From: Escherichia coli
GTDB lineage: Bacteria; Pseudomonadota; Gammaproteobacteria; Enterobacterales; Enterobacteriaceae
Length of the DNA: 64,000 nt
Direction: 5' to 3' (one strand)
Assembly: GCF_046105845.1 (NCBI RefSeq)
Contig: NZ_CP151004.1
The translations under genes and the position numbers were made by a program. Of the stretch, positions 21,408 through 54,370 are shown in pieces. The notes beneath the pieces were generated by a model that saw only the letters and a list, made by a program, of their open reading frames with translations, had not been told where the DNA came from and made no database searches. Position 1 is the stretch's first letter, and every line of letters starts with the position of its first letter.

Positions 21408-21484
21408 GGCTACGTAGCTCAGTTGGTTAGAGCACATCACTCATAATGATGGGGTCACAGGTTCGAATCCCGTCGTAGCCACCA
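21408..21484 (+). tRNA. metT: tRNA-Met (CAU), elongator
   Basis: GGCTACGTAGCTCAGTTGGTTAGAGC...CTCATAA anticodon loop...GTAGCCACCA; cloverleaf, encoded CCA. Confidence 0.9.
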
Positions 21485-21492
21485 TCTTTTTT

Positions 21493-21577
21493 GCGGGAGT
21501 GGCGAAATTGGTAGACGCACCAGATTTAGGTTCTGGCGCCGCAAGGTGTGCGAGTTCAAGTCTCGCCTCCCGCACCA
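21493..21577 (+). tRNA. leuW: tRNA-Leu (UAG), long variable arm
   Basis: GCGGGAGTGGCGAAATTGGTAGACGCACCAGATTTAGGTTCTGG...CGCACCA; anticodon TAG. Confidence 0.9.
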
Positions 21578-21600
21578 TTCACCAGAAAGCGTTGTACGGA

Positions 21601-21675
21601 TGGGGTATCGCCAAGCGGTAAGGCACCGGTTTTTGATACCGGCATTCCCTGGTTCGAATCCAGGTACCCCAGCCA
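21601..21675 (+). tRNA. glnU: tRNA-Gln (UUG)
   Basis: TGGGGTATCGCCAAGCGGTAAGGCACCGGTTTTTGATACCGG...CCCCAGCCA; anticodon TTG. Confidence 0.9.
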
Positions 21676-21709
21676 TCTTCTTCGAGTAAGCGGTTCACCG
21701 CCCGGTTAT

Positions 21710-21784
21710 TGGGGTATCGCCAAGCGGTAAGGCACCGGTTTTTGATACCGGCATTCCCTGGTTCGAATCCAGGTACCCCAGCCA
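21710..21784 (+). tRNA. glnW: tRNA-Gln (UUG), second copy
   Basis: Identical sequence to the copy at 21601. Confidence 0.9.
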
Positions 21785-21799
21785 TCGAAGAAACAATCT

Positions 21800-21876
21800 G
21801 GCTACGTAGCTCAGTTGGTTAGAGCACATCACTCATAATGATGGGGTCACAGGTTCGAATCCCGTCGTAGCCACCA
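21800..21876 (+). tRNA. metU: tRNA-Met (CAU), elongator, second copy
   Basis: Identical sequence to the copy at 21408. Confidence 0.9.
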
Positions 21877-21924
21877 AATTCTGAATGTGTCGAATAAGTT
21901 CGGCAAATTCACAAACCAATTTGT

Positions 21925-21999
21925 TGGGGTATCGCCAAGCGGTAAGGCACCGGATTCTGATTCCGGCATTCCGAGGTTCGAATCCTCGTACCCCAGCCA
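21925..21999 (+). tRNA. glnV: tRNA-Gln (CUG)
   Basis: TGGGGTATCGCCAAGCGGTAAGGCACCGGATTCTGATTCCGG...; anticodon CTG. Confidence 0.9.
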
Positions 22000-22036
22000 A
22001 TTTATTCAAGACGCTTACCTTGTAAGTGCACCCAGT

Positions 22037-22111
22037 TGGGGTATCGCCAAGCGGTAAGGCACCGGATTCTGATTCCGGCATTCCGAGGTTCGAATCCTCG
22101 TACCCCAGCCA
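22037..22111 (+). tRNA. glnX: tRNA-Gln (CUG), second copy
   Basis: Identical sequence to the copy at 21925. Confidence 0.9.
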
Positions 22112-31665: not shown

Positions 31666-32574
31666 ATGCAATTACGTAAACCTGCCACAGCAATCCTGGC
31701 CCTGGCGCTTTCCGCAGGACTGGCACAGGCAGATGACGCCGCCCCGGCAGCGGGCAGTACGCTGGACAAAATCGCCAAAAACGGTGTGATTGTCGTCGGT
31801 CACCGTGAATCTTCAGTACCTTTCTCTTATTACGACAATCAGCAAAAAGTGGTGGGTTACTCGCAGGATTACTCCAACGCCATTGTTGAAGCAGTGAAAA
31901 AGAAACTCAACAAACCAGACTTGCAGGTGAAACTGATTCCGATCACCTCACAAAACCGTATTCCACTGCTGCAAAACGGCACTTTCGATTTTGAATGTGG
32001 TTCTACCACCAACAACGTCGAACGCCAAAAACAGGCGGCTTTCTCTGACACTATTTTCGTGGTCGGTACGCGCCTGTTGACCAAAAAGGGTGGCGATATC
32101 AAAGATTTCGCCGATCTGAAAGGCAAAGCCGTAGTCGTCACTTCCGGCACTACCTCTGAAGTTTTGCTCAACAAACTGAATGAAGAGCAAAAAATGAATA
32201 TGCGAATTATCAGCGCCAAAGATCACGGTGACTCTTTCCGCACCCTGGAAAGCGGTCGTGCCGTTGCCTTTATGATGGATGATGCTCTGCTGGCTGGTGA
32301 ACGTGCGAAAGCGAAGAAACCAGACAACTGGGAAATCGTCGGCAAGCCGCAGTCTCAGGAAGCCTACGGTTGTATGTTGCGTAAAGACGATCCGCAGTTC
32401 AAAAAGCTGATGGATGACACTATCGCTCAGGTGCAGACCTCCGGTGAAGCGGAAAAATGGTTTGATAAATGGTTCAAAAATCCCATTCCGCCGAAAAACC
32501 TGAACATGAATTTCGAACTGTCGGACGAAATGAAAGCACTGTTCAAAGAACCGAATGACAAAGCACTGAACTAA
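31666..32574 (+). CDS. gltI: Glutamate/aspartate ABC transporter periplasmic binding protein GltI (302 aa)
   Basis: ORF 31591..32574; ATG 31666 preceded by AAGGAG gives MQLRKPATAILALALSAGLAQA... signal peptide. Confidence 0.95.
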   Translation: MQLRKPATAILALALSAGLAQADDAAPAAGSTLDKIAKNGVIVVGHRESSVPFSYYDNQQKVVGYSQDYSNAIVEAVKKKLNKPDLQVKLIPITSQNRIPLLQNGTFDFECGSTTNNVERQKQAAFSDTIFVVGTRLLTKKGGDIKDFADLKGKAVVVTSGTTSEVLLNKLNEEQKMNMRIISAKDHGDSFRTLESGRAVAFMMDDALLAGERAKAKKPDNWEIVGKPQSQEAYGCMLRKDDPQFKKLMDDTIAQVQTSGEAEKWFDKWFKNPIPPKNLNMNFELSDEMKALFKEPNDKALN

Positions 32575-32577
32575 TTA

Positions 32578-32731
32578 CAAGAACCAGGGGCGGAAATTCC
32601 AGCCCTCTCGATTGTTACGTAGCACGGACAGACTATACGCCTGATGGTCGTTCCCCATCGGGCCTGAAAACCGCAATACGCTGGGTAACAATCTTCGAGG
32701 GTAGCAGTTAACGCTGCTACCCTCTTTTTTC
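32578..32731 (+). ncRNA. sroC: SroC sRNA (GcvB sponge) processed from the gltI-gltJ spacer
   Basis: Conserved gltI-gltJ intergenic region ending in terminator GGGTAGCAGttaacGCTGCTACCCtctttttt; position matches the known SroC locus. Confidence 0.6.
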
Positions 32732-32743
32732 TGGAGTAGATTT

Positions 32744-51267: not shown

Positions 51268-52233
51268 ATGAGTAAACCCATTGTGATGGAACGCGGTGTT
51301 AAATACCGCGATGCCGATAAGATGGCCCTTATCCCGGTTAAAAACGTGGCAACAGAGCGCGAAGCCCTGCTGCGCAAGCCGGAATGGATGAAAATCAAGC
51401 TTCCAGCGGACTCTACACGTATCCAGGGCATCAAAGCCGCAATGCGCAAAAATGGCCTGCATTCTGTCTGCGAGGAAGCCTCCTGCCCTAACCTGGCGGA
51501 ATGCTTCAACCACGGCACAGCAACGTTTATGATCCTCGGCGCTATTTGTACCCGCCGTTGTCCGTTCTGTGACGTTGCCCATGGTCGCCCGGTAGCTCCG
51601 GATGCCAATGAACCAGTGAAACTGGCGCAGACCATTGCCGATATGGCGCTGCGTTATGTGGTTATCACCTCCGTTGACCGTGATGACCTGCGCGATGGCG
51701 GTGCCCAGCACTTTGCGGATTGCATTACTGCCATTCGGGAAAAAAGCCCGCAAATCAAAATTGAAACTCTGGTGCCGGATTTCCGCGGTCGTATGGATCG
51801 TGCTCTGGATATTCTGACCGCCACACCACCAGATGTGTTCAACCATAACCTGGAAAACGTACCGCGTATTTACCGTCAGGTACGGCCTGGTGCAGATTAC
51901 AACTGGTCGCTGAAGCTGCTGGAACGCTTTAAAGAAGCGCATCCGGAAATCCCGACCAAGTCTGGTCTGATGGTGGGTCTGGGTGAAACCAATGAAGAAA
52001 TTATTGAGGTAATGCGCGACCTGCGCCGTCATGGTGTGACGATGTTAACGCTGGGGCAATATTTGCAGCCAAGCCGCCATCACCTGCCGGTTCAACGTTA
52101 CGTTAGCCCGGATGAGTTCGACGAAATGAAAGCCGAAGCGCTGGCGATGGGCTTTACCCATGCTGCATGCGGTCCGTTTGTCCGCTCGTCTTACCACGCC
52201 GATTTGCAGGCGAAAGGGATGGAAGTTAAGTAA
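51268..52233 (+). CDS. lipA: Lipoyl synthase LipA (321 aa)
   Basis: [29 protein letters not shown]..., radical-SAM CxxxCxxC (CTRRCPFC) plus auxiliary cluster cysteines. Confidence 0.97.
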
Positions 52234-52264
52234 TCCTGTAATAATTGCTTACATCTGTCTGATA

Positions 52265-52294
52265 AAAAACCCGCTTTTTGAAGCGGGTTTTTTG
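52265..52294. terminator. Bidirectional rho-independent terminator shared by convergent lipA and tatE
   Basis: aaaaaaCCCGCTttttgAAGCGGGtttttt. Confidence 0.7.
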
Positions 52295-52333
52295 TATCGA
52301 ACAAGATATTGAGGGAGCGTCCTGCTCGCCACG

Positions 52334-52537
52334 TCACTCTTTATGAGAGAGCTTTTCAGCCTGAAGATCAACGTCTGCGCCTTTTTTCGCCGCAGCATCG
52401 TCATCATTCATCGCCTTCTTGAACCCTTTAATGGCCGCTCCAAGGTCTCCGCCCAGCGTACGTAACTTCTTAGTCCCAAACAGCAGAACGACCAGCGCCG
52501 CAACTACCAGCAGTTTGGTAATACTAATCTCACCCAT
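52334..52537 (-). CDS. tatE: Sec-independent translocase component TatE (67 aa)
   Basis: [50 protein letters not shown]... Confidence 0.95.
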
Positions 52538-52665
52538 AGATACCTTCTTGACATATAACCGGCAACAGAACGCGCCTTAAAAACCAGAGAATATTAACGG
52601 TCATTCGACGCGCGCACACAATAGCAATCTGTAACAAGGTGAATCAAGCGCCGAGTAAAAAAACA

Positions 52666-53454
52666 TCATAATAATTGCGGCGGCGCAAAGCGACGGTTGT
52701 TTAAGACGGGCAGTTGCGCGCGCACCTGACGCACACGTTCGGGCGTCACTTCCGCCATAATGAGTGCAGGCATTTCTGACGCTGCCGCAATGGTGACGCC
52801 AAAGGGATCTATAATCCGGCTTTGCCCGATATTTTTGTTCCCGCACTCCCCCGCCGCCACCATATAACAGGTGGTATCCAGCGCACGAGCGGCAAGCAAC
52901 GTTGACCAGTGATGCTCTTTGAGCGGCCCACGAACCCAGGCGGCAGGAAGTACCAGGATTTCAGCTCCCTGTAATGCCTGTGCCAGCGCCAGCTCTGGAA
53001 AGCGTAAGTCATAACAGGTCATCAGACCGACCTTCATCCCTTCCACCTCCAGTAACGGAGCTATTTCATTACCAGCATCAACATGGCGTGATTCCTGAAT
53101 GGCAAATGCATCATAGAGATGCAGTTTGGCATAACGGGCGACGATGTTTCCTGCCTGAAGTGCCACCAGCATATTCCATGCGCGCCCCGGCGTTGAAGGA
53201 ACATGAATCGTCAGAATTGTCGTCATCATGTTACGTTTACTTTCTCGCCGTAAACGTCCGAGGAATTTGCCTTCCAGCAGCTGCGCTGATTTAACCGATA
53301 GATCTGCATCATGATCATCACGCGCCAACAATGCTTCCGGCAGGACAAACAGCGAAACGTCGTTTTCCGCCGCCTGCGCCATCAACGAGGCACAAATCTC
53401 AGCGTTCTTTTCCCACACAGATGTAACAGCAAACTGTCCTGCGGCAACCAGCAT
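52666..53454 (-). CDS. ybeM: Carbon-nitrogen hydrolase (nitrilase superfamily) YbeM-like protein, apparently intact (262 aa; alternative GTG start at 53460)
   Basis: ORF ...[47 protein letters not shown]...; E-K-C triad context (MTCYD); AGGAGG 7 nt upstream of ATG 53454. Confidence 0.8.
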
Positions 53455-53549
53455 TGCCACCTCCTCCTGTCAGAGTCGTAAAATTCGCCAACGGCGATTA
53501 TTCGGCGTTACACTTATCACTCATACAAATCAAATAGCAGGATTTTGCA

Positions 53550-53933
53550 GTGTTACAACTTCTTTTAGCAGTTTTTATTGGCGGTGGTACGGGAAGCGTG
53601 GCGAGATGGCTGTTAAGTATGCGATTTAACCCGCTGCATCAAGCGATTCCGTTGGGGACGCTGGCTGCAAACCTGATTGGGGCATTCATCATAGGAATGG
53701 GATTCGCCTGGTTTAGCAGGATGACGAACATTGATCCAGTGTGGAAAGTATTAATCACCACCGGATTTTGTGGCGGTCTAACAACCTTCTCAACATTTTC
53801 GGCAGAAGTGGTGTTTTTGTTACAAGAGGGCCGCTTTGGCTGGGCGTTACTGAACGTTTTCGTCAACCTTTTGGGGTCTTTTGCTATGACCGCACTGGCT
53901 TTCTGGCTGTTTTCCGCCTCAACCGCACACTAA
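53550..53933 (+). CDS. crcB: Fluoride channel Fluc/CrcB (127 aa)
   Basis: [58 protein letters not shown]..., TTFSTF motif. Confidence 0.95.
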
Positions 53934-53938
53934 AGACC

Positions 53939-53967
53939 AAAAAAAACCCGCTGATTAAGCGGGTTTT
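53939..53967. terminator. Bidirectional rho-independent terminator shared by convergent crcB and cspE
   Basis: aaaaaaaaCCCGCTgattaAGCGGGtttt. Confidence 0.7.
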
Positions 53968-53986
53968 GAATTCTTGCTGACGTATC

Positions 53987-54196
53987 TTACAGAGCGATTA
54001 CGTTTGCAGCAGAAGGGCCTTTGGCACCGTTAGTGATTTCGAACTCTACGCGCTGACCTTCAGCAAGAGTTTTAAAACCATTAGTCTGGATTGCAGAGAA
54101 GTGTACGAACACGTCTTTGCTGCCGTCTTCCGGAGTAATGAAACCGAATCCTTTGGACTCATTAAACCACTTAACGTTACCTTTAATCTTAGACAT
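53987..54196 (-). CDS. cspE: Cold-shock-family protein CspE (69 aa)
   Basis: ORF 53987..54280; internal ATG 54196 gives [69 protein letters not shown]. Confidence 0.97.
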
Positions 54197-54370
54197 CAAA
54201 ATTACCTTTACATGAAAAATAGACACAAATGCTGTGTCGGTTACCAGTACACCAATTGTGGTACGCTTTGTCCAGTGCAACTTTACTAAAAAGTGATAAA
54301 AGTCGCGTTATTTTTGATGTTAATTATTTTACCCATTGATTTTAAAGAGTTTACTAAAATTTCATTTGTC

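Follow-up and report, generated by a model that had tools for sequence, protein, structure and literature searches.

An intact ybeM gene, most likely encoding a deaminated glutathione amidase, in an Escherichia coli chromosome, and the frameshift that breaks it in K-12

Does this Escherichia coli strain still carry an intact copy of a nitrilase-type gene that is broken in the reference strain K-12, and what would its product do? The question is raised by ybeM, located on the minus strand at 52666..53454 of the window, i.e. the whole stretch of 64,000 nucleotides of contig NZ_CP151004.1 (assembly GCF_046105845.1) that was analysed. A sequence-only reading had described it as an uninterrupted C-N hydrolase gene behind a strong Shine-Dalgarno (SD) element, described the K-12 copy as a disrupted pseudogene and suggested that the copy in the window may be the functional ancestral form. 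Our analysis leaves us highly confident that the feature is the intact chromosomal ybeM, encoding a cytoplasmic amidase of 262 residues that belongs to the nitrilase superfamily, is a bacterial homologue of Nit1 and is most likely a deaminated glutathione (dGSH) amidase. The reading frame, the HMM family, the catalytic residues, the synteny, the place of the K-12 lesion, its distribution among strains and the purifying selection were computed here, while the proposed substrate and chemistry of YbeM are drawn from the family assignment and the literature.

The gene is a single open reading frame of the expected length. The ORF scan gave one uninterrupted frame at 52666..53460 on the minus strand, 264 aa long if counted from a GTG at 53460, and the in-frame ATG at 53454 yields the 262-aa product, with 262 codons followed by a TGA stop. 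The 262-264 codons and the coordinates noted earlier are hence correct. RefSeq places the ybeM start of other strains at the ATG equivalent to 53454 (789-nt CDS). The sequence 5' of this ATG is ACAGGAGGAGGTGGCAATG, and in longer context ...GACAGGAGGAGGTGGCAATG. It holds an SD element, AGGAGGAGG, at 53460..53468 (minus strand), made of three AGG units and separated from the ATG by the 5-nt spacer TGGCA. The element is followed by a T, and its 3'-most AGGAGGT matches the complement of the anti-SD sequence. The GTG at 53460 sits inside the SD element and is therefore unlikely to be the start, and the ATG at 53454 is the credible one. The strong SD read from the letters was confirmed, but the distance of 7 nt given for it was approximate, since the spacer measures 5 nt when counted from the last AGGAGG and 8 nt when counted from the first.

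The SD element of ybeM is a short tandem repeat whose copy number varies between strains. Three AGG units are found in the window and in many other strains, and two in K-12, E2348/69, O111:H8 and others; both forms are common, and both occur among the retrieved loci L003-L017. The number of units could tune translation. When 52200-53700 was scanned for promoters and terminators, only two weak hairpins came up, no more than in shuffled controls, and there was no sigma-70 consensus promoter.

The lesion in K-12 is a deletion of one base. RefSeq flags the 788-nt ybeM CDS of MG1655 as a 'frameshifted' pseudogene (labelled 'ybeM: pseudogene' in NC_000913.3), in agreement with the earlier reading. 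The K-12 locus (b0626 region) and its flanks are orthologous to those of the window, and 961 bp align with 98.3% nucleotide identity. Only one of the differences in the alignment breaks the frame: K-12 has lost a single base at CDS nt 200, the G in the middle of the CGT codon of Arg67. Alignments and allele-specific probes both find this G present in the window, at 53255 on the minus strand, so that the K-12 frameshift, which would have overturned the earlier reading, is absent here; no stop or frameshift occurs over the 262 codons. The K-12 product has 66 native and 9 out-of-frame residues (75 in total) with a stop at codon 76, and it keeps E40 of the four catalytic residues described below but lacks K110, E121 and C147. 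Putting the G back at nt 200 of the K-12 sequence by computation gives a complete frame of 262 codons. The K-12 gene (locus L001) has two further nonsynonymous changes upstream of the frameshift, at nt 98 and 110 (V33A and V37A), and the frameshifted allele of NCTC86 (locus L012) is without them. They would be compatible with decay or relaxed constraint after the inactivation, for which two changes make a thin basis.

Could the open frame be an artefact of sequencing or assembly, in a strain that truly has the K-12-type frameshift? Single-base indels are a common sequencing error, but the chance that this happened here is very small. The base in question lies outside any homopolymer (context GGAC-G-TTT), several linked SNPs separate the haplotype of the window from that of K-12, and at least 3986 complete genomes have an intact sequence at the same site. 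The last number comes from a megablast search of 5426 complete E. coli genomes with probes of 44 and 45 bases that have the lesion at their centre; since megablast requires an exact 28-base word, a probe seeds only on a target with the same allele. The probe of the common intact allele matched 3752 of the 5426 genomes, and the intact probes of the E2348/69 and MS1494 types matched 158 and 76, respectively. The probe with the K-12 deletion matched 860, and this is a lower bound because about 578 of the 5424 genomes bearing the locus were left unclassified, with nearby SNPs breaking the 28-base seed. The nt-200 deletion is thus carried by at least ~16% of the complete genomes, about one in six.

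The carriers of the deletion come from humans, chickens, pigs, calves, river water and seawater. They also include NCTC86 (host Homo sapiens, Germany, according to its record), which we take to be the nineteenth-century isolate of Escherich. With so many natural isolates and NCTC86 among its carriers, the frameshift is an old natural allele of a lineage, inherited by K-12, and not a laboratory mutation or a domestication artefact. It is fixed in a large lineage to which NCTC86 and K-12 belong, together with many isolates of clinical and animal origin. One carrier stands out. The ybeM pseudogene of EcN_Sk (locus L013, NZ_CP172017.1, 725-1512) is identical in nucleotide sequence to that of MG1655, including the K-12-specific V33A and V37A. 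Both its name and its origin (stool, Herdecke, Germany) point to a relative of Nissle 1917, a background that presumably belongs to phylogroup B2. A ybeM identical to that of MG1655 would be unexpected in a Nissle-type strain, and might be explained by recombination, by a hybrid or by a problem of labelling.

What kind of enzyme does the intact frame encode? The nitrilase-superfamily features noticed in the translation are borne out by the Pfam search, in which YbeM matches CN_hydrolase (PF00795) with 139.9 bits against a cut-off of 23.2 (E 1.2e-40), residues 3-245 aligning to positions 2-255 of the 256 of the profile. The gene can be assigned beyond the level of a C-N hydrolase, and it now has a specific function attached to it: the NCBIfam model of deaminated glutathione amidase (NF033621, EC 3.5.1.128) covers YbeM end to end (positions 2-260 of 260) with 451.3 bits against a cut-off of 355. 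The best-matching solved structures are of the Nit1 type, namely NitFhit of C. elegans (1ems, 104.9 bits, E 4.7e-29) and yeast Nit2 (4h5u, 97.1 bits, E 1.1e-26), and the omega-amidase structures score lower (mouse Nit2, 2w1v, 80.3 bits, E 1.5e-21; yeast Nit3, 1f89, 74.9 bits, E 6.8e-20). YbeM thus appears to be nearer to the characterised proteins of the Nit1 type than to those of the omega-amidase type, by a modest margin. The homology to solved structures (E 4.7e-29) also implies a predicted alpha-beta-beta-alpha sandwich fold.

An alternative hypothesis could be that the ORF is intact but encodes another enzyme of the nitrilase superfamily, for instance a true nitrilase, an N-carbamoylputrescine amidase or an omega-amidase of the YafV or Nit2 kind. 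All of these families have the same fold and catalytic residues, YbeM has weak matches to several of their NCBIfam models, and the omega-amidase structures match it at E of the order of 1e-20 to 1e-21. We nevertheless regard this as very unlikely, with the structural relatives ranking as they do and with the alternative models far under their cut-offs (61.4 bits against 249 for the YafV-type NF007757, 63.5 against 410 for aguB, 61 against 500 for nitrilase), whereas the cut-off of NF033621 is exceeded by ~96 bits. The match to NF007757 is only partial and its score is well under the cut-off, so the gene in the window is not a YafV omega-amidase; the omega-amidases share with YbeM the fold family and the hydrolysis of amides through a thioester. 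The eukaryotic Nit1 proteins (mammalian Nit1, yeast Nit2 and the Nit domain of NitFhit) have the superfamily and the Glu-Lys-Glu-Cys set in common with YbeM, and dGSH amidase is the activity assigned to them in a published account (PMC7041631). YbeM is distant from them (E ~1e-26 to 1e-29) and shorter, at 262 aa, without the Fhit fusion and without the insertions of yeast Nit2.

The putative active site of a dGSH amidase is complete in the window. By alignment to 1ems, the general base would be Glu40 in the LPE motif (codon at 53335..53337, minus strand, as are the others), aligned to the LPE glutamate of NitFhit; the catalytic lysine would be Lys110 in YAKLHL (53125..53127), aligned to the KLHL motif; the second active-site glutamate would be Glu121 in QES (53092..53094), aligned to mES; and the nucleophile would be Cys147 in MTCYD (53014..53016), aligned to sICYD. 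All four residues are invariant in the 12 of 12 enterobacterial orthologues aligned, each 262 aa long. Orthologues of this length, with 71-84% identity and named deaminated glutathione amidase, occur in E. fergusonii, Citrobacter, Salmonella, Leclercia, Kosakonia and Enterobacter. The divergent ybeM allele of the EPEC strain E2348/69, which we take to belong to phylogroup B2, is also intact. Both observations support the suggestion that the open frame is the ancestral form, the orthologues of these six genera or species keeping the catalytic residues.

The neighbourhood of ybeM is conserved as well. The gene order is lipA(+)-tatE(-)-ybeM(-)-crcB(+)-cspE(-)-pagP(-), the same in K-12 and in other E. 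coli. Downstream, tatE lies on the same strand (52334..52537, minus) after a gap of 128 bp; upstream, the fluoride exporter gene crcB is divergent (53550..53933, plus) and shares an intergenic region of 95 bp with ybeM. The gene between tatE and crcB is at a position orthologous to that of genes annotated as deaminated glutathione amidase. According to Rfam and tRNA scans, which covered all of the window, the rest of it resembles ordinary E. coli core genome, with a cluster of seven tRNA genes (Met-Leu-Gln-Gln-Met-Gln-Gln, 21408-22111), the sRNA sroC (32570-32732) and, over cspE with its 5' leader, a match to the cspA-type thermoregulator family (53939-54297).

A short frame also lies inside ybeM. 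It is an out-of-frame ORF of 47 aa at 53061-53204 (minus strand) with the N-terminus MFLQRRGAH. A 29-bp ybeM fragment of UTI89 (clone D10) that causes filamentation on over-expression encodes exactly MFLQRRGAH (PMC6206680). The sequence is conserved in the window, and the filamentation is probably an artefact of over-expression.

The protein of the window is a rare variant of a very common one. It is 99.6% identical to the most common YbeM allele of E. coli (RefSeq WP_001305561.1 and related alleles, NF033621), the same gene at the same locus, from which the window differs only in one of 262 residues and in the three AGG units of the SD (two in K-12). The residue is Lys at codon 63 (AAA at 53266..53268, minus strand), where the common allele has Glu (GAA), and it alone makes the protein rare. 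The exact protein of the window (P0002) was found in 9 contigs and is recorded as E. coli deaminated glutathione amidase in the public collection; the allele differing only by E63 (P0001) is listed in 38,604 index blocks and was found in at least 1000 contigs. In this region the window has no identical counterpart among complete RefSeq E. coli genomes, the best match reaching 99.8% across 961 bp and 99.5% across 18 kb. This raised the question of Shigella or another species as the source, but the record of the exact protein is from E. coli, and gene order and identity are both typical of that species.

One may ask if the frame is open but the allele impaired, E63K or the extra AGG unit being a cryptic loss of function. 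The rarity of the exact protein (9 contigs against at least 1000) and the charge reversal by E63K would fit such impairment, yet we judge it highly improbable. Position 63 is E, D, A, S, P or G in the orthologues and lies well away along the chain from E40, K110, E121 and C147, and many loci coding for the common allele have the three-unit AGG form, which is hence no oddity of this strain. Since the position varies among orthologues, E63K is probably neutral.

Where it is intact, ybeM is under purifying selection, as indicated by a dN/dS of 0.045-0.105 when the window is compared with four intact alleles that were chosen independently. The mean over 13 sequences is 0.056, a value biased low by six loci that were retrieved for encoding an identical protein. 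From these sequence comparisons we infer that the ybeM of the window is functional, and we assume that it is expressed in this strain.

The function we propose for YbeM is the repair of a damaged metabolite. Transaminases occasionally turn the gamma-glutamyl amino group of glutathione into a keto group, giving dGSH. YbeM, translated from the ATG at 53454 behind the AGGAGGAGG ribosome-binding site, would hydrolyse the amide of dGSH to 2-oxoglutarate and cysteinylglycine, with the thiol of Cys147 as the nucleophile, helped by Glu40, Lys110 and Glu121 in the standard thioester mechanism of the nitrilase superfamily. A useless side-product would in this way be recycled. The 1-bp deletion at codon 67 cost K-12 and a large natural sub-lineage this enzyme, and the window has the ancestral open frame. 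Nit1 homologues of E. coli and of other glutathione-producing bacteria are said, in the 2017 abstract of Peracchi et al., to be excellent dGSH amidases. A published account (PMC7041631), citing Peracchi et al. 2017, attributes dGSH amidase activity to Nit1 homologues, including those of 'many bacteria'. In a mutant of the UPEC strain CFT073 exposed to NO, the expression of ybeM was ~0.30-fold (PMC5320621), and a gene whose expression changes in this way is transcribed in that strain. The same work reports for CFT073 an NsrR ChIP peak within ybeM, ~345 bp into the gene, and K-12 ybeM is likewise listed among the targets of NsrR (PMC5320621).

The frame of ybeM has been lost more than once. CEC08123 (locus L018, 167-954) has lost one base of an A-run at CDS nt 49 (codon 17), and in JNE21-003 (locus L016, 1-2198) an IS21-like insertion (ISEc62 family) replaces the last ~30 codons, the disrupted CDS still being annotated as an intact protein of 241 aa. 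Each of these lesions was found in one strain and is independent of the K-12 lesion. Clusters of truncated YbeM in a large protein collection hint at more lesions, some of which may be sequencing errors. The recurrent natural loss shows that the function is dispensable. PMC7041631 describes Nit1 loss in other organisms as having no obvious detrimental effect, and the independent losses and the ~16% frequency of the frameshift fit these reports. Given three lesions, i.e. the deletion at codon 67, that at codon 17 in CEC08123 and the IS21-family insertion in JNE21-003, one could speculate that the repeated inactivation reflects selection for loss of the dGSH amidase in some E. coli lineages and not neutral decay. 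We consider this quite unlikely. If true, intact and broken ybeM would form a functional polymorphism with effects on the economy of glutathione or sulfur, and the rare E63K allele with its three-unit AGG site would be a further variant in expression or activity.

The intact ybeM is the common and ancestral state, and RefSeq already annotates the intact gene routinely. The observation made from the letters and its interpretation both hold, and both are already known from annotation and literature. What our analysis adds is modest: the exact lesion of K-12 and its frequency among complete genomes, the losses that arose independently of it, and the finding that the E63K allele is rare. For the biology of E. 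coli, the strain keeps a probable metabolite-repair gene that is broken in the reference laboratory strain. This is relevant where K-12 serves as the model of glutathione damage metabolism, or where ybeM, treated in K-12 as a pseudogene, is used as a 'neutral' insertion site (PMC7242477).
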